Shown: positions 886-59,391 of the stretch, piece by piece
Layout of the letters: every line of letters begins with the position of its first letter
How positions within the stretch are numbered: the first letter of the stretch is position 1
From: an uncultured Actinomycetes bacterium
GTDB lineage: Bacteria; Actinomycetota; Thermoleophilia; Gaiellales; Gaiellaceae
Reading direction: 5' to 3'
Length of the DNA stretch: 64,000 nucleotides
Assembly (NCBI GenBank): GCA_963775155.1
Contig: CAVZHU010000014.1
Coordinates: 50,297 to 114,296 of the forward strand
The notes under the pieces: generated by a model
What the model saw: the letters and a program-made list of their open reading frames with translations, nothing else
Database searches by the model: none
Told to the model about the DNA's origin: nothing
Translations under genes and position numbers: made by a program

Positions 886-1983
886 TCAAGGGTTCCCCGC
901 AAATTGCGGACTTTCGGCCGGCTCGAGGGCGAGCTGCCTGAAGTCGGCGAGACCGGAGACGCCGACGCCGACGAGACGCAACGCGCCGGGCCGGTCGCGC
1001 AGCCCGCGGTCGAGGAGCAGGCAGGCGAGATCGCCGATCGCCTCGGCCCCGTCGATCCCCGCCTCGAGCGAGGTCGACCGGCTGCGGATCGAGAAGTCGG
1101 CGTAGCGGAGCTTCGCCGTCACCGTCCGCGCGACCTGGGCGCGGCGCTGCAGCGCCGCCGCGACCTCCTCGGCCATCCGGCGCAGCTCGTCGTGCAGCCG
1201 TTCGCGGTCGGCGATGTCGCGCTCGAACGTGTTCTCGACGCTGATCGAGATCCGCTCGGCGCCGAGCTCGAGCCCGCGCGGGTCGATCCCGCGCGCCCGG
1301 TCGCGCAGCATCGTCCCGACGCTGCCTGGGAGCAGGCGGCGGAGGTCGTCGTCGGCGAGGGCGGCCAGACCGCCGATCGCGTCGATCCCGGCCGTGCGGA
1401 GACGCTGCTCGGCCTTCGGCCCGACGCCCGGCAGGCGGCGCACCGGCAGCGGCGCCAGGAACGCTTCCTCCCGTCCCGGCGACACGACGACGAGGCCGCC
1501 CGGCTTGCGCGCGTCGCTCGCGACCTTCGCGACGACCTTGCACGGAGCGACGCCGAGGGAGCACGTGAGGCTCGTCGCGGCGCGCACCGCGGTCTGCACC
1601 GCCTCCGCGACGACGCGGGCGGCGAGGAAGTCCCTTGCGACCTCTCCGACGTCGAGGTAGCCCTCGTCCAGCCCGGTCTGCTCGACCGTGGGGACGACGC
1701 CGCGCACGGTCTCCCAGACGGTTCGCGAGTACTCCCGGTAGAGCGCGTGGCGCGGGCGGACGAAGACGGCCTGCGGGCAGCGGCGCAGCGCCTCGGCGGC
1801 GCTCATCGCCGAGTGGATGCCGAAGCGGCGCGCGGCGTAGTTCGCGGTCGCGACGACGCCGCGGCCGCGCGGGTCGCCGCCGACGACGAGCGGCTGCGTG
1901 CGGAGCTCCGGGCTCTCGAGCTCCTCCACCGCGGCGAAGAAGGCGTCGAGGTCGAGGTGCGCGACGATCCCCGGGACGGCCAC
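886..1983 (-). CDS. dinB: DNA polymerase IV (Y-family translesion polymerase)
   Basis: 365-aa intact ORF. N-terminus IVAHLDLDAFFAAVEELE and the overall Y-family (IMS/UmuC) layout are recognisable. Confidence 0.9.
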   Translation of the reverse strand: MAVPGIVAHLDLDAFFAAVEELESPELRTQPLVVGGDPRGRGVVATANYAARRFGIHSAMSAAEALRRCPQAVFVRPRHALYREYSRTVWETVRGVVPTVEQTGLDEGYLDVGEVARDFLAARVVAEAVQTAVRAATSLTCSLGVAPCKVVAKVASDARKPGGLVVVSPGREEAFLAPLPVRRLPGVGPKAEQRLRTAGIDAIGGLAALADDDLRRLLPGSVGTMLRDRARGIDPRGLELGAERISISVENTFERDIADRERLHDELRRMAEEVAAALQRRAQVARTVTAKLRYADFSIRSRSTSLEAGIDGAEAIGDLACLLLDRGLRDRPGALRLVGVGVSGLADFRQLALEPAESPQFAGNP

Positions 1984-2007: not shown

Positions 2008-2122
2008 GGCCGGTGGCAGCCACCGTTACGGAAGCGTCACGACGCGCTCAGCTCTACGAAGCGGCCCGTGACGTATTCGCGATTCTTCTGCGCGTGCTTT
2101 GTGATGGTGGCTGCCACCGGCC
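2008..2122 (+). repeat. 115-bp palindrome-ended intergenic element, copy 1
   Basis: GGCCGGTGGCAGCCACC at 2008-2024 and its complement GGTGGCTGCCACCGGCC at 2106-2122. Lies between divergent dinB and the carboxyltransferase gene. Same termini as at 8334, 41750 and 57712. Confidence 0.85.
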
Positions 2123-2152: not shown

Positions 2153-3712
2153 GTGGCCGTGCTCACGTCGACCGCCGACCGCGACGCCGAGGAGTTCTCC
2201 CGCCGGCGCGAGCGGATGGCGGAGCTCGTCGCCGAGCTGCGCGAACGGACGGCGCAGGTCGCGCGCGGCGGCGGCGAGCAGGCGATGGAGCGCCACCGCT
2301 CACGCGGCAAGCTGCCGGCCCGGGAGCGGATCGACCGCCTCGTCGACCCCGGCACCGCCTTCCTCGAGCTGAGTGCGCTCGCCGCCTGGGACCTGTACGA
2401 CGGCGGGGCGCCGAGCGCCGGGATCGTGACCGGCATCGGGATCGTCGAGGGACGCGAGTGCGTGCTCGTCGCCAACGACGCGACCGTCAAGGGCGGCTCG
2501 TACTTCCCGCTCACGGTGAAGAAGCACCTGCGCGCCCAGGAGGTGGCGGAGCAGAACCGGCTGCCCTGCCTCTACCTCGTCGACTCGGGCGGCGCCTTCC
2601 TCCCGCTCCAGGCCGAGGTCTTCCCCGACCGCGACCACTTCGGGCGGATCTTCTACAACCAGGCGCAGATGTCCGCGCAGGGCATCCCGCAGATCGCGGT
2701 CGTGCTCGGCTCGTGCACGGCCGGCGGCGCCTACGTGCCGGCGATGTCGGACGAGACGGTGATCGTGCGCGGCACGGGGACGATCTTCATCGGCGGCCCG
2801 CCGCTCGTGAAGGCGGCGACCGGACAGGACGTTACCGCGGAGGAGCTCGGCGGCGCCGACGTCCACACGCGCCGTTCCGGGGTCGCCGACCACTACGCGA
2901 CCTCCGACGAGCACGCACTCGCGATCGCGCGCGGAATCGTGCGCAACCTCCACCTCGGCGCACTCGAGCCGTGGGACGTCGCCGAGCCCGAGCCCCCCGC
3001 CCTCGACCCCTCCGACCTGTACGGCCTCGTCCCCGAGGACTTCCGCCACCAGGTCGACCCGCGCGAGCTGATCGCACGCATCGTCGACGGCTCGCGCTTC
3101 CAGGAGTTCAAGCAGCTCTACGGCGAGACGCTCGTCACCGGCTTCGCGCGCCTCGAGGGCTTCCCCGTCGGGATCCTCGCGAACAACGGCGTCCTCTTCG
3201 CCGAGTCGGCGCAAAAGGGGGCGCACTTCGTCGAGCTCTGCTGCAAGCGGAAGATCCCGCTCGTCTTCCTCCAGAACATCACCGGCTTCATGGTCGGGGC
3301 CGAGTACGAGGCCGGCGGGATCGCGCGCGACGGGGCGAAGCTCGTGATGGCCGTTGCCAACGCCGCCGTGCCGAAGTTCACGGTCGTCACCGGCGGCTCG
3401 TTCGGCGCGGGCAACTACGCGATGTGCGGGCGGGCCTACTCCCCGCGCCAGCTCTGGATGTGGCCGAACGCCCGCATCTCGGTCATGGGCGGCGAGCAGG
3501 CGGCGACCGTCCTCTCGCTCGTCGGCGACGTCGACGAGGCCGCGATCCGCGCCAAGTACGAGCGGAGGGCAACCCCTACTACTCGACCGCACGGCTCTGG
3601 GACGACGGGATCATCGACCCGCTCGACACGCGGCGGGTACTCGCGCTCGGGCTCGCGGCGGCGCTGCAACGCCCCGATTCCCGAGACGACGTTCGGCGTC
3701 TTCCGCATGTGA
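2153..3712 (+). CDS. acyl-CoA carboxylase carboxyltransferase (beta) subunit, methylcrotonyl-/propionyl-CoA type; frame changes near 3565 and 3665
   Basis: ORF 2123..3712 has the carboxyl-transferase family sequence throughout. The C-terminus switches to the frame of ORF 2458..3726 ([30 protein letters not shown]) and returns for [14 protein letters not shown]. Start uncertain (TTG 2123, GTG 2153 or 2159). Confidence 0.85.
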
Positions 3713-3722
3713 GAGGAGAACG

Positions 3723-4080
3723 ATGAGCTACTCGCTGGTGAACGTGCACGAGCTGGAGCCGGGCGGCCGCACCGGGATGGTGAAGTTCGTGCGGCGCGAG
3801 CTCGGCGTGGGAGGCGTTCGGACTCAACTGGTTCGAGCTGCCCCCGGACACCAAGGCCACGAGCACGACGAGACCGCCACCGGGCAGGAGGAGGTGAACG
3901 TCGTCTTCTCGCGGCGGCGGCCACTGGCGGATCGACGGCGAGGACGTCCCGGTACGGGAGGGCACGTTCCTCCGGTTCGACCCCGAGACCGTCCGCTGCC
4001 CGGTGGCCGGCCCGGACGGGATGGCCTTCCTCGCGATCGGCGCGCGCCGAGGCAGCTACGAGCCGCGCGGACCGTTCTAA
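3723..4080 (+). CDS. cupin domain protein (frameshifted)
   Basis: [15 protein letters not shown]... then by frame-hopping ...[86 protein letters not shown] with stop at 4078-4080. This is the cupin G-x5-H-x-H pattern. Confidence 0.55.
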
Positions 4081-4089
4081 GCTCACGCC

Positions 4090-4394
4090 ATGACCACGAA
4101 GGACGTCGTGCAACGGGTGAAGGCACTCCTCGCGAAGCTGCCCGAGGAGACCGCCTCCTCGTCCGCGTGATCTGCCGCATCCTCATCTGGAACCTGTTCG
4201 AGTCGAAGACGACGCTCGACGAGCTGCGCGCGCACCTGCCCGCGCTGCCCGAGGGCGACACGTGGATCTCGAACGACGTTGCACGACCGGCTCGGCCTGA
4301 TCAGCTTCGGCGACGAGGTGCCCGACCTCGGGGACGTGCCGGCAGCTCATCGGGAGACGACCCGGACATCGCCGAAGAGTTCGACGTCGAGTGA
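4090..4394 (+). CDS. small hypothetical protein (frameshifted)
   Basis: ATG at 4090 (MTTKDVVQRVKALLAKLPEE). It continues in other frames as ICRILIWNLFESKTTLDELRAHLPALPEGDTWISNDV and ends ...PDIAEEFDVE. No family recognised. Confidence 0.3.
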
Positions 4395-6541: not shown

Positions 6542-7390
6542 GGGCGCCACGCCGCGACGATCCGCTCGACCTCCGCGTGCTCCGCCGCGGTCAGGCCCGC
6601 GGAGCGGCGCGCGCACCTCCGGTCCGAGCGGGACGCCGCGCAGCGCGAGGGCCGCCTTCGCCGCAGCGTGGAACGGGAGCTGCTGGAGGGACGCGCGGAG
6701 CGAGGTCGCCCTCTCCCCCGCCTCGGCCGTCGGCTCGCGGACGAGCGGCACGACGGCGTCCGGGAAGCTCGCGGCGAGACCCGAGACGGCACCGGCGGCG
6801 CCGGCCGGCAGCGCCCGGGCGAGCAGCGCCTCGGCGCCGACGAAGACGTCGAGCCCGGCGCCGAGATACGGCTCGAGCCGCTCCCACGGGCTGTCCGAGA
6901 CCTTCATCCCGGCGAGGTTCGGGACGCGCTCGCGGAGGCGCTCGATCACGGGCAGCGGGATCGCGTAGCCGCTCCGGGCCTGGAACTCGTACAGATAGAA
7001 AGGCAGGGGCGCGCAGGCGGCGGCGGCCGCCTCGAAGTGCGCGAGCAACTCCTCGGGGTCGAGCGGGAAGTACGGGGGGCCGATCACGGCGACGGCGTCG
7101 GCCCCGGCCGCGGCCGCGTGCGCGGCGAGCTCGGCGGTGTCGCGGGTCGTCTGGGCGCCGCAGTGGACGGCGACCTGGAGGCGGTCGTGGGCCGCTGCCA
7201 GGAATGCGGCGGCCACGGCGCGCCGCTCGTCCGGCGAGAAGAGCACGCCCTCCCCCGTCGTGCCGAGGACGAGGATCCCGTCGAGCCCGTGCCCGGCGAG
7301 GAAGTCGACGTACGGCCCGACCGCGGCGGCGTCGAAGGCGCCGTCGCGCAGCGGCGTCACCGCAGCTGCGAGCGCTCCGCGCAGCGTCAC
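6538..7390 (-). CDS. DapA-family lyase (dihydrodipicolinate synthase / hydroxyproline-pathway type); one frameshift near the 3' end
   Basis: VTLRGALAAAVTPLRDG...GLDGILVLGTTGEGVLFSPDER...GMKVSDS inside ORF 5966..8242. The end ...[19 protein letters not shown] lies in the frame of ORF 6538..6792. ATGA overlap with the proline dehydrogenase start suggests a proline/hydroxyproline catabolic pair. Confidence 0.75.
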
Positions 7391-8265
7391 GGTAGGACTC
7401 CGGTCAGCTGCGCGAACGCCATCCGCCACTCCCCCTCGCCGCGCTCGACCAGCGGCCGCAGCTGCGCCGTCAAACGCGCGCGCTCGTCCAGCGTCAAGGC
7501 CTGGTCCATCGCCTCGCGCAGGGTCGGGATGTTCGGGTTGCCGGCGGTGTCGAGAAGGCCGTCCCAGCTCCGCGGCGCCACGGGTTCGATCGCAGCCCTC
7601 AACCTCAACCTGAGGGGGAAGAATGCGGCGTCCTCGGCGAGCCGGAGGAGGTCGCGCTCGTCGAAGTCGAGCATCGGGTCCCTGTCGGGCGGCTGGAGCC
7701 CGGCGAAGACGGCGTGCAGCTTCGCTCCGAGCTCCTCCAGCCCGTCGAGCTCGTAGCCGAAGAAGCGTCCCCGCCAGAGCTGATCGGCGCCGAAGCGGTT
7801 GATCGGCTCGGCGAGCGAGATCCGGCCGCCGGGCCGGAGCACGCGCGCGAACTCGGCGAACGCGCCCGCCTTGTCCCGCTGGTAGATGAGGACGGAGCGG
7901 GTCGTGACGACGTCGGCGGAGGCGTCCTCGACGGGCGCGAGGTCTGCGGCCGCCGCCTGCACGAAGCAGCAGCGATCGAGGACACCGAGCTCGGCCGCAG
8001 CCTCGCGGCAGAAGTCGAGCAGGTCGCTGGAGATGTCGGAGAAGACCACGCGTCCGGCGCCACGCTCGAGCGCGCCGAAGCCGATCAGCCCCTCGCCGCA
8101 GCCGACGTCGAGGAGGGTCTCTCCCCCGCGGAGCTCGGCGCGGTCGAGCACCTCGCCCCGTACTTCCGCGAGCCTCGCGAGCGTCGCAGCCCGAGTCTCG
8201 GGGTCGCCGCCGAAGCGCCGCTCCGCCAGCCACTCCGCCCACCGGTCGCGCGCCGCCGCGGTCAT
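7387..8265 (-). CDS. class I SAM-dependent methyltransferase
   Basis: 292-aa intact ORF with motif I LLDVGCGEGLIG. Confidence 0.8.
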   Translation of the reverse strand: MTAAARDRWAEWLAERRFGGDPETRAATLARLAEVRGEVLDRAELRGGETLLDVGCGEGLIGFGALERGAGRVVFSDISSDLLDFCREAAAELGVLDRCCFVQAAAADLAPVEDASADVVTTRSVLIYQRDKAGAFAEFARVLRPGGRISLAEPINRFGADQLWRGRFFGYELDGLEELGAKLHAVFAGLQPPDRDPMLDFDERDLLRLAEDAAFFPLRLRLRAAIEPVAPRSWDGLLDTAGNPNIPTLREAMDQALTLDERARLTAQLRPLVERGEGEWRMAFAQLTGVLP

Positions 8266-8333: not shown

Positions 8334-8448
8334 GGCCGGTGGCAGCCACCCTTACGAAACTGTCACGAGCGCGGCCGCGTGGGGATGCGGTGCGATTGCG
8401 ATCGCCGACGCGTTCGTGATGCTTTCGCGACGGTGGCTGCCACCGGCC
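8334..8448 (+). repeat. 115-bp palindrome-ended intergenic element, copy 2
   Basis: Termini identical to copy 1. Symmetric pairing gives 41 of 46 positions paired (4 G-U) when read on the + strand. Confidence 0.85.
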
Positions 8449-41749: not shown

Positions 41750-41852
41750 GGCCGGTGGCAGCCACCATCACAAACAGTCACGCCATAGAGGACAAACGGC
41801 GAGACAGAGCGGCGGACTCCGTTACGAAGACGTGCAGTGGCTGCCACCGGCC
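41750..41852 (-). repeat. 103-bp palindrome-ended element, copy 3 (inverted, shortened)
   Basis: GGCCGGTGGCAGCCACC at 41750-66 and GTGGCTGCCACCGGCC at 41837-52. The arm plus flank CCACCATCACAAA is the reverse complement of copy 1's right end TTTGTGATGGTGG. Confidence 0.8.
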
Positions 41853-57539: not shown

Positions 57540-57700
57540 GCGCCGAGCACGGAGCGCAAGTAGGTCGAAACCTCGACTGAGCGGTCAGACGAAGAGGGGG
57601 CAACCCCGAGGCGGAAGGTCGGTTGGGCGAGGCGGACGAAAGCGCAACCGGCTCGGCGAATTCTCTGGTCCGGCCCCCGCAAGGGGGCCGGACGCTTTTC
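57540..57700 (+). ncRNA. candidate orphan structured small RNA (about 160 nt), family not recognised
   Basis: Closing helix CGCCGAGC (57541-48) / GCTCGGCG (57651-58), extended by CGG/CCG and GCGC/GCGC. Internal hairpins include GGGG-GCAA-CCCC. Ends in a strong intrinsic terminator. Lies in a 350-nt gap between convergent genes. Confidence 0.45.
57669..57700 (+). terminator. rho-independent terminator
   Basis: TCCGGCCCCC-GCAA-GGGGGCCGGA followed by CGCTTTTC. Confidence 0.75.
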
Positions 57701-57711
57701 AGGGGCCGAAC

Positions 57712-57826
57712 GACCGGTGGCAGCCACCGTCACGAGAGGGTCGGGCGTTCGCGACGGATCGGTGACGGAGCGGCCGGCCGAGCGGCGCAGCTCGTGACAG
57801 AGACGTCACGGTGGCTGCTACCGGCC
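57712..57826. repeat. 115-bp palindrome-ended element, copy 4
   Basis: GACCGGTGGCAGCCACC (57712-28) and GGTGGCTGCTACCGGCC (57810-26). The right arm overlaps the last 9 nt of the TrmH-family gene. Confidence 0.85.
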
Positions 57827-58490
57827 TTGGCGCGCCAGCTCGTAGAGCGCGATCGTTCCCGCCATCGCGACGTTGAGCGACTCGCCGCCCGCCTGCGGGA
57901 TCGAGACGCGCTCGGCGCAGGCCGCCAGCACCTCGGAAGGAAGCCCGTCGCGCTCTGCGCCCAGCACGAGCACGACTTCGCCGCCGGCCTCGAGCTCCGG
58001 CAACGGCGTGCCGCCCTGGGGCACGAGCGCAAGCCGTCGGCCGGCGGGCTGCTCGAAGTCCGCGAGCGGAACGCGGAAGACGGAGCCCATCGACGCGCGG
58101 AGCGCCTTCGGCGAGGTCGGGTCGGCGCAACCAGGCGAGAGCGCGACACCGGCCCCGAACGCGTCCGCGGAGCGGAGCAGCGTGCCGACGTTGCCGGGGT
58201 CGCCGACGTGCCACAGTCCGAGCGTGACGGGGCGCACGCCGCGCGGGAGGTCGTCGCGCCGGTAGACGGCGATGACGCGCGGCGGGTGCGCCAGCGACGA
58301 GACCTCGGCGAGGAGCTCGGGCGCGACGGTCTCCCCCGCCGCCAGCACGTCGACCGGCTCCACGCCGGCAGCCGCTGCGGCTGCGACGAGATCCTCGCCC
58401 TCGACGGCGAACAGTCCGAGCTTGTCGCGCCAGCGCCGGTCGCGGAGCTTGCGCAGCAGCTTGAGGCGCTCGTTGTCGCGGGAGGAGATC
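57818..58490 (-). CDS. SpoU/TrmH-family RNA 2'-O-methyltransferase
   Basis: [16 protein letters not shown]..., GDPGNVGTLLRSADAFG, ESLNVAMAGTIALYE. GTG 58490 preferred (GTGA overlap with the upstream gene); the ORF is open to 58594. Confidence 0.8.
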
Positions 58491-59391
58491 ACGCGCGCCA
58501 GTCGATCCAGGCGCCGTGAAAGTCGGCGTGGGCCACCTCGTCTCCGTCCACGAAGAGACCGTAGTAGTCGTGGCTGCCGTCGTTCGGCTGCCACGTCTCG
58601 ACGAACGCGACCTCCGCCTCGGCGAGCAGCTCCCGGACACGCTCCCGGCGCTCGCGCGGAAGGTAGTTGAGCGCAGCCGTCTGCCAGACGACGAGCAGGC
58701 TGTCGCCGCGGCCGCGCGCGAGCACCGCCGGCAACTCCTCGACCATGTCGCCCGCGACGATCTCGGGCGGGTCACGCCGCCAGACCTCGACCGCGGCGTC
58801 GACTCGTGCGAGCCGCTCGGTCTGGCCCGCCCAGACGAACGCCTTCAGCAGCCGTACCCCCTCGTCCGTGTGCAGGTCGGGGGGCGCCGCGTCGATTCCC
58901 ACCCGCGACCGCACGACGGGAAGCCGCGAGAGCGGCACGGGCGTCCGCTCCTTGCCGGCGAGCACCGGCTCCCCGGGGAACGAGCCGTTTCCGTACTCGT
59001 AGCCGTACCGGTCCCAGATCAGGTTCAGCCCGCCGCTGCAGCCGAGCTCGAGGCAATGGAAGGAGTCGACGCCGTAGCGGCGCGCGACCTCGAGGAAGCA
59101 CGGCACGAGCCACCAGCAGCGCTGGACCTCGTTCGTCTGCACCCGCTCCTGCGCCACCCAGGCGGCGAGGAACTCCGCCTCGTCGCGCAGCGCGCCGTGC
59201 ACGTCGTCCCACGACGCGCGGCCGCTCAGCACGAGGTAGTGGAGGCCGCCGAAGAGCTGCAGCGGGTAGCGCCGGCCGACCTCGGCGGGAAGGAGCGGCT
59301 CGCCGGCGAGCTCGTGGGCCAGCCGTTCGTAGAGAGGCGAGCGGCCCGCGAAGTGCCGCGCCTGCCGCCGGAACGCCTCGGCCCGGTTCAG
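58489..59391 (-). CDS. DUF2332-like protein (methyltransferase-fold family); start unresolved
   Basis: The family-like N-terminus [28 protein letters not shown] is in frame upstream of the annotated GTG 59232. No ATG/GTG/TTG precedes it, only a CTG at 59391 overlapping the rplT stop. Confidence 0.55.

Follow-up and report, generated by a model that had tools for sequence, protein, structure and literature searches.

Probable REPINs of a divergent RAYT family in an uncultured Gaiellaceae bacterium

Repetitive extragenic palindromes (REPs), the inverted REP doublets known as REPINs and the REP-associated tyrosine transposases (RAYTs) are well described (PMC2817692, PMC3116915, PMC3337134, PMC5581495, PMC3479197). 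In Pseudomonas fluorescens, Escherichia coli, and Neisseria, REPINs consist of two inverted REPs around a spacer of conserved length, measure about 100 bp, are extragenic, reside for a long time at orthologous sites and have a spacer less conserved than the REPs, and the RAYT gene occupies a single syntenic locus flanked by the same REPs (PMC3116915, PMC5581495, bioRxiv 10.1101/2021.07.10.451892). Association with REPINs has been reported only for RAYTs of Groups 2 and 3, which are largely gammaproteobacterial (bioRxiv 10.1101/2021.07.10.451892), and REPs with a GTAG tag have been reported in Proteobacteria, Cyanobacteria, Chloroflexi, and the Planctomycetes-Verrucomicrobia-Chlamydiae (PVC) group, but not in Actinobacteria (PMC3733652). 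No paper joining the term "REP-associated tyrosine" with Actinobacteria was found in the searched literature. The present analysis concerns four short elements in a 64-kb stretch of contig CAVZHU010000014.1 (hereafter the window), which belongs to an uncultured bacterium of the Gaiellaceae. The doublet structure, length, extragenic position, long residence and less conserved spacer described above are found again in these elements and in their relatives, where the same REPs also flank a RAYT gene at a locus that is syntenic and may be single, and it is very probable that the four are REPINs, i.e., non-autonomous inverted REP doublets, of a Gaiellaceae RAYT family.

Compared with the proteobacterial systems, the host is different (Gaiellaceae, Thermoleophilia, an actinobacterium), the REP is much shorter and is a perfect 13-nt palindrome, and the spacer can essentially not be aligned from copy to copy and shows no selection for pairing. 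Two types of arm (combined as AB or BB, never AA), boxes of GTSAC with an 11-nt period and a divergent RAYT are further differences. Regarding the REP itself, a similar layout of tag and G+C-rich hairpin can be found in the GTAG REPs and the E. coli TnpA-REP system (PMC2817692, PMC3479197; PDB 4ER8, PMC3733652); the Haemophilus REP GTAG-GGTGGGC-TTCA-GCCCACC (PMC2817692) may be set beside the Gaiellaceae REP GTRAC-GGTGGC-W-GCCACC. As with the GTAG REPs, head-to-head dimers predominate, heterodimers are favored over homodimers and the sites lie downstream of coding regions; as with TnpA-REP, the enzyme is of the HUH/Tyr kind, 4ER8 being the only PDB relative of the Gaiellaceae RAYT. In contrast, the Gaiellaceae tag is GT(A/G)AC and the loop has 1–3 nt.

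The four copies, their REP units and their neighbors are as follows (spacing is measured from palindrome start to palindrome start; the arm types A and B are described below).

2008..2122: REPIN copy 1, 115 bp, spacing 94, both arms of type B; neighbors are the start of a DinB-like gene (886-1983, minus strand) and a carboxyltransferase gene (about 2155-3712, plus strand)
2008..2029, plus strand: left REP unit of copy 1, with GGCC, the 13-nt palindrome GGTGGCAGCCACC and a GTTAC tag
2101..2122, minus strand: right REP unit of copy 1, with the minus-strand sequence GGCC-GGTGGCAGCCACC-ATCAC
8334..8448: REPIN copy 2, 115 bp, spacing 94; neighbors are a methyltransferase gene (7387-8265, minus strand) and an enoyl-CoA-hydratase-like gene starting at about 8464 (plus strand)
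8334..8355, plus strand: left REP unit of copy 2, GGCC-palindrome-CTTAC
8427..8448, minus strand: right REP unit of copy 2, read on the minus strand as GGCC-palindrome-GTCGC
41750..41852: REPIN copy 3, 103 bp, spacing 82 (the 83 class, with one 11-nt unit fewer), left arm B and right arm A, located upstream of meaB (40695 to about 41693, minus strand)
41750..41771, plus strand: left REP unit of copy 3
41831..41852, minus strand: right REP unit of copy 3, whose palindrome has one mismatch, AGTGGCTGCCACC
57712..57826: REPIN copy 4, 115 bp, spacing 94, left arm B and right arm A, with convergent genes on both sides
57712..57733, plus strand: left REP unit of copy 4, GACC-palindrome-GTCAC
57805..57826, minus strand: right REP unit of copy 4, read on the minus strand as GGCCGGTAGCAGCCACC-GTGAC

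The family had been noticed in a model's reading of the bare letters (hereafter the sequence-only reading), and the positions of the four copies, their inverted 17-nt termini, palindrome spacings and lengths were all confirmed on re-measurement. The spacings are 94, 94, 82, and 94 nt for copies 1 to 4, and inverted GGCCGGTGGCAGCCACC forms the ends of three 115-bp elements and a 103-bp one; this 17-mer is exact in six of the eight termini and has a single mismatch in the other two. In a window with a G+C content of 71%, GGTGGCWGCCACC with at most one mismatch gives eight matches, all inside the four pairs, where shuffled sequences predict 0.14. The outer flank GGCC-TT is present in three of the four copies, and the cores cannot be aligned, as had also been claimed. 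The ends are conserved, although the conserved stretch extends past 17 nt into the boxes of the arms. A search of the window with an nhmmer profile of the arm yielded no more copies and no singlets. Copies 1–3 are intergenic as described, but copy 4 is not entirely so: the sole mismatch of its right terminus (57810-57826), GGTAGC, forms the TAG stop codon of a SpoU-type methylase gene (57818-58594, minus strand). The same TAG inside the terminus is kept in a related locus, L155 (related loci are numbered with the prefix L).

REPINs are recognized by two inverted REPs with a characteristic short spacer (less than about 130 bp), which are seen in all four copies of the window, and by the occurrence of the same REP beside a RAYT gene, which is seen in related Gaiellaceae contigs. 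In several metagenome loci, two inverted termini about 630 bp apart enclose an open reading frame (ORF) of 180 aa. RAYT homologues were detected by tblastn in 14 loci among the at least 120 listed from a metagenome scan with the single terminus GRCCGGTGGCAGCCACCNTYAC, for which our estimate of the chance number is well below one. The geometry is fixed in at least 8–9 distinct loci, the palindrome starting 77 nt ahead of the ATG and its inverted counterpart 16 nt past the final codon (L093, L082, L070/L138, L132/L057, L065, L159, and L160; the values are -74/+34 in L075), and the RAYTs of these loci share 61–81% pairwise identity. The same arrangement of palindromes and RAYT is found in a 754-kb Gaiellaceae contig. 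In L070, L082, L093, and L160, the RAYT gene is found between those of Asparaginase_II and Fpg; a single-locus, vertically inherited RAYT is the pattern described for REPIN-associated RAYTs (PMC5581495). Locus L070 comes from a metagenome that also holds contigs identical to those of a relative about 94% identical to the window.

With regard to the protein, the Pfam profile PF01797 (Y1_Tnp) matches at 23.2 bits (cutoff 23), and NCBIfam NF047646, "REP-associated tyrosine transposase," at 42.4 bits (E 5.9e-11); on these profile scores the Gaiellaceae RAYT can be regarded as a divergent relative of the NF047646 family. A search of PDB with a single RAYT sequence gave no match. With a profile of nine RAYT homologues, the sole match was 4ER8, the E. 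coli TnpA-REP (E 7.7e-7), in an alignment that spans the HUH and Tyr motifs. Invariant residues are H60-x-H62 (THYHL), Y119, Y..NP (YAYAMNNPV), and W.WSS, and the protein is thus predicted to carry the HUH motif and catalytic Tyr of a RAYT in a Y1_Tnp fold. A protein search gave 269 homologues; those of JGI bear the label "REP element-mobilizing transposase RayT," and those of NCBI come from Gaiellaceae metagenome-assembled genomes (MAGs). More distant RAYT-like genes, with 32–42% identity, can be found in L095 (269-830), in L152/L101/L131 and in L081 (10771-11217). The one in L095 has GGTGGCAGCCACC 38 nt downstream, the others being without flanking palindromes, and L095 may point to a wider RAYT clade using the GGTGGCAGCCACC hairpin.

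The anatomy of the doublets was compared across loci from two scans, the metagenome scan mentioned above and a scan of one genome per species for the pattern GGTGGCAGCCACC-N60-90-GGTGGCTGCCACC, which gave 39 loci (L001-L039). The palindrome, GGTGGC-W-GCCACC, is short, G+C-rich and extragenic, as expected of a REP. Read tag-first, the REP unit is 5'-GTRAC-GGTGGCTGCCACC-GGYC-3', and the units are inverted with their tags inward ("head-to-head"). The tag is not GTAG but GTYAC on one strand and GTRAC on the other, with T in 50, A in 60, C in 63, and G in 55 of 67 cases; it is GTAG-like, yet not GTAG. From 33 doublets of the main variant, the consensus of the arm is nnA(C)GRCC-GGTGGCAGCCACC-GTYACG-N5-GTSACG-(N5-GTCACG), so that each arm holds two to three GTNAC boxes with an exact 11-nt period (e.g., 2025-2046 and 8351-8372 in the window). 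Type A arms have a pyrimidine-rich spacer (ACG-TCTYT-GT) and type B arms a purine-rich one (ACG-GAAGC-GT); among the same 33 doublets, 24 are AB, nine are BB and none is AA. In the window and 159 related loci, 124 doublets are found among the matches listed, and their spacing is sharply quantized at 83, 94, and 104 nt, the third class covering 103–105 nt and the classes lying one 11-nt box unit apart. The doublet is the predominant form: the window and L001-L039 hold just two to three singlet remnants, as judged with the nhmmer arm profile, and an inverted partner accompanies 59–68% of the 116 singly ascertained termini among the matches listed. We know of no published REP feature that explains the phased GTSAC boxes or the 11-nt steps in length. 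The orientation of an element cannot be read from its termini, because any inverted repeat gives A...T on both strands.

Some loci depart from this plan. A second Gaiellaceae variant (L001, L002, L007, L011, L020, and L033) has the palindrome followed by a GGAC-N3-4-GTCC palindrome and preceded by GTCAC repeats, and its modules are direct, not inverted. Three GTGACGGGCAT units are placed on the outer side of the palindrome in variant loci like L011 (7118-7150), and at 7100-7250 of L011 a 90-nt module is tandemly duplicated.

The two arm types reappear around the RAYT gene. Its 5' flank is a B arm (GTSACG-GAAGC-GTCACG), with 64 nt from the palindrome to the ATG, and its 3' flank is an A arm (GTTACG-TCTCY-GTCA), with the TGA stop codon inside its second box. 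Together the flanks amount to 64 + 15 = 79 nt, near the 81 nt found inside doublets of the common class, as expected if an AB doublet corresponds to the RAYT unit minus its ORF; AB doublets may thus have originated from a RAYT unit through loss of the ORF. The doublet consists of two short, tag-inward REP units around a freely evolving spacer of quantized length, and such doublets are very probably the non-autonomous partners of the RAYT, an HUH/Tyr transposase (Y1, IS200-like) that would occupy a single locus. On the model of E. coli TnpA-REP and IS200/IS605, the 13-nt palindrome would fold into a small hairpin in single-stranded DNA, the RAYT would bind this hairpin and the GTRAC tag next to it and cleave nearby, and a doublet would occasionally be copied or moved to another extragenic site, where the copies would then remain in place for very long. 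Binding and cleavage by the RAYT, the single-stranded intermediate and present-day activity are inferred from these models.

Mobility is documented by one clean empty site. L122 lacks exactly the 124 nt that an element fills in L038; the two convergent genes of L122 overlap at CTAG, and one of them has its final codon altered in L038, with a new TAA at the element's border (L038 1160-1300 vs. L122 2340-2350). L077 carries a 60-nt spacer of unrelated sequence at this site. At another site, the orthologous loci L018, L036, and L109 also differ in how many REP units they have, with 1.5 units in L036. A further candidate, L085, was rejected as an empty site: compared with L113 (3941-4058; contigs about 99% identical), it has lost 118 nt that extend from the flank into the element and comprise one REP unit and 81 nt of flank including a gene start, a deletion that is either element-associated or an assembly artifact. 

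Terminal inverted repeats of 17–19 nt, repeated subterminal hexamers and a length of about 100 bp without an ORF could also be taken for an ordinary MITE (miniature inverted-repeat transposable element) of a DDE-type insertion sequence, its subterminal repeats being bound by the transposase. However, no target-site duplication was found, and the statement of the sequence-only reading that none is clear holds for the elements, including the L122/L038 comparison. Each terminus is itself palindromic, a hallmark of the hairpin-recognizing Y1 enzymes, and in the loci listed the Y1/RAYT gene is the only gene found between termini of the GGCCGGTGGCAGCCACC type, no DDE transposase being found there. 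The unrelated cores, and a persistence down to about 78% flank identity, are unlike the typical short-lived bursts of MITEs, and a DDE origin is hardly credible. IS200/IS605-derived palindrome-associated elements and classical MITEs (Correia, RUP, ERIC) are likewise small, non-autonomous, intergenic and ORF-less with hairpin potential, but the ends of the former are not inverted copies of each other, and the latter have target-site duplications, conserved interiors and a dependence on DDE transposases, unlike the Gaiellaceae element.

Most copies are old and have long been resident at orthologous sites. In 116 orthologous pairs that are not identical, with flank identity as low as 78%, the orientation is clearly shared in 74 and reversed in none, the interiors of the other 42 being too diverged for a decision. 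For pairs with flank identity of 77–92%, identity is about 82% in the outer 6 nt, 62–66% in boxes 1 and 2, 40–44% in the second spacer and about 58–60% in the core. The palindromes are 97–98% identical in these pairs, a figure partly built in by the way the elements are found; a less biased estimate comes from the partner 17-mer of termini found via the other end, which is perfect in 40 of 116 and has at most two mismatches in 69 of 116. In the window, copy 1 and its counterpart in L124 agree at 73 of 81 interior positions, with flanks 94–95% identical, and the L017 and L124 copies have the same orientation. Copy 4 and L155 share their termini, including the GGTAGC stop, with interiors about 50% and flanks about 80% identical, and a further orthologue is present in L127. 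That ends and spacing are conserved and the core is free can be ascribed to the age of the copies, in which only the ends presumably recognized by the RAYT, and to a lesser degree the boxes, have been retained.

Copy 2 behaves differently. Relative to both flanks, its interior is inverted in L124 (6108-6215; a relative about 90% identical), the alignment score being 36 for the inverted and 6 for the direct orientation against a null of 3.3 ± 7.9, and the left flank of L124 is rearranged as well. Inversion as a general property was discarded, none of the 74 other resolvable orthologous pairs being inverted; the inversion of copy 2 is therefore taken as an isolated event beside a local rearrangement. 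The methyltransferase gene 7387-8265 is largely missing from L124, where about 290 nt replace about 1030 nt, and this indel lies directly beside the REPIN.

It can be asked whether such copies are held in place rather than being merely selfish, either by selection on each copy or its co-option as a stop-codon and terminator module of a compact genome, or else by RAYT-driven correction of the sequence; under selection on each copy, a host protein or the RAYT would bind the palindrome and the phased GTSAC boxes. Flanks diverged by 12–20% and interiors of about 40–60% identity accompany essentially intact termini of 17–19 nt, the outer 6 nt and the GTSAC boxes are partly kept, lengths follow an 11-nt grid and stop codons lie in the border of the element. 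We consider this tentative and on the unlikely side; if true, the idea of the REPIN-RAYT system as a vertically inherited symbiont would reach Actinomycetota with an independent and far more minimal REP.

Two other readings had been offered for the elements, a long hairpin, either of structured RNA or MITE-like, and a pair of operators. For the former, folding of single sequences gives a long hairpin for each copy, with z-scores of -4 to -9, copies often directly follow stop codons, and E. coli REPs are known to stabilize upstream mRNA and to affect translation termination (summarized in PMC3733652), so that a structured non-coding RNA or an element acting at the RNA level, such as a bidirectional terminator or an mRNA stabilizer, might be the primary reason for the elements. 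The fold stability is, however, due to the 17-nt inverted termini alone. Position by position, arms match each other less well inside an element than across elements (permutation p = 0.9995, the wrong way round for a hairpin), and native pairs of halves fold worse than chimeras (-63.9 vs. -67.3 kcal/mol, Wilcoxon p = 0.0006) with fewer pairs across the halves; the interiors do not covary as a hairpin. Such avoidance of perfect long palindromes matches the heterodimer preference of REPs (PMC3733652). No Rfam family matched at the gathering score, and at E < 1 only mir-1451, snoZ206, and radC appeared, at chance-level scores of 16–19 bits (best E 0.26, with 16 bits where the gathering score is 40). 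In tandem contexts, five AB and six BA doublets indicate no polarity relative to transcription, and the termini have no U-tract behind them. An RNA function as the primary reason is thus quite improbable. The MITE-like half of the proposal stands, in that the ends match those of a transposase-carrying element, and the structured-RNA half does not. The sequence-only reading had added that copies with random orientation and position, variable length and no covariation would reduce the family to a generic repeat; random orientation and a lack of covariation were found, and by this yardstick the elements are of the REP/MITE type.

The genomic context was established with the element masked when calling genes and with stop positions checked directly. 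For 43 doublets, 13 contexts are convergent, 21 tandem and five divergent, and window copies 1 and 2, together with copy 1's orthologue in L017, make up three of the five divergent ones. Roughly half of the genes converging on an element have their stop codon 3–11 nt before the palindrome, the typical form being TGA-CGGCC-GGTGGC, which accounts for the conserved A at -6/-5; of about 50 converging genes, 13 have a TGA or TAA 4–5 nt ahead of it. Many elements occupy the entire gap between two stop codons. Immediately 5' of copy 4, a G+C-rich hairpin, GGTCCGGCCCCCGCAAGGGGGCCGGAC, is followed by GCTTTTC (57668-57706) and is kept in L155. It looks like an intrinsic terminator, but the terminator scan made no call there because the T run has four T's only. 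In the window, the flanking genes encode DinB, a carboxyltransferase, two methyltransferases, an enoyl-CoA-hydratase-like protein, MeaB, an MFS transporter and SpoU.

This siting bears on the second proposal, two dimer-operator palindromes about nine helical turns apart that would loop DNA, possibly with an OmpR-family regulator (MtrA, GlnR) on the GTSAC boxes. Termini and GTNAC boxes are conserved around a free core, the spacing classes 83/94/104 are about one helical turn apart, and the 11-bp direct-repeat period may resemble that of actinobacterial response-regulator sites. Three window copies also lie upstream of acyl-CoA-related genes (carboxyltransferase, enoyl-CoA-hydratase-like, meaB). 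A regulon of propionate metabolism served by copies 1–3 was considered on this basis, found unconvincing, and dropped because of the bias toward 3' ends and convergent genes in 39 other loci and because of the RAYT link. Convergent and tandem contexts outnumber divergent ones, copies filling stop-to-stop gaps have no promoter to regulate, and copy 4 sits between convergent genes behind the terminator-like hairpin. The orthologous empty site, and the same ends placed around a transposase gene at fixed geometry, also speak against a cis-regulatory module, which we regard as very improbable.

MAGs of Gaiellaceae, Gaiellales, or Thermoleophilia account for almost all of the 39 doublet loci. With an identity to the window of about 94%, L017 and the metagenome contig L124 have copy 1 at the same place, so the organism of the window is a member of the Gaiellales close to MAG CAZRTE01. 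The exceptions are three loci of a Planctomycetaceae MAG and one of a Phycisphaerae MAG, which have only the 13-mer in common with the rest. These PVC-group doublets (L009 6731-6846, L026 904-1019, and L032 771-885 in the former; L010 5469-5583 in the latter) have the identical 13-nt palindrome and a length of 115–116 nt but wholly different flanks, AGAAAA-palindrome-AAATYY. Convergence on a hairpin preferred by RAYTs, an old shared RAYT lineage, or mis-binning could account for them. The sequence-only reading did not recognize the element as a described family; this is right for the sequence, the 13-mer being found in no searchable paper, but not for the kind, REPs and REPINs with a RAYT being well described (PMC3116915, PMC2817692).

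Several observations weigh against the identification as REPINs of a RAYT family. No RAYT homologue was found by tblastn within the 64-kb window, and for the window's own genome the RAYT link is drawn from close relatives. The NF047646 score of the RAYT is under the 80-bit equivalog cutoff of that NCBIfam family. The tag is GTRAC where the canonical REP tag is GTAG, the hairpin is very short, with a stem of 5–6 bp, and the 11-nt phased GTSAC boxes are no described REP feature. Unlike in a textbook REPIN, the doublet interior is no selected long hairpin, only the 17–19-nt termini being built to pair. Atypically for the family, 5' or divergent regions hold three of the window's four copies. Finally, REPINs are expected in tens to hundreds of copies per genome, and copy number here looks modest, with at most ten exact doublets per MAG; in the window, four doublets in 64 kb correspond to about 125 REP units per Mb.

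If these elements are REPINs, the host range of the REPIN-RAYT system, studied almost only in Proteobacteria, extends to the Gaiellaceae, which are abundant and mostly uncultured soil Actinomycetota. The minimal REP, a 13-nt palindrome with a 5-nt tag, would be a small substrate for studies of RAYT recognition, and copies of very different ages could help to test REPIN persistence and selection on the ends. The repeats would also account for breaks between contigs and for strange intergenic "palindromes" of Gaiellales MAGs, and should be masked in screens for motifs or small RNAs.

Elsewhere in the window, about 455 nt at 3712-4166 are absent from both L017 and L124; this segment contains a cupin-like ORF, apparently frameshifted, and a small ORF, MTTKDVVQRVKALLAKLPEETASSSA.

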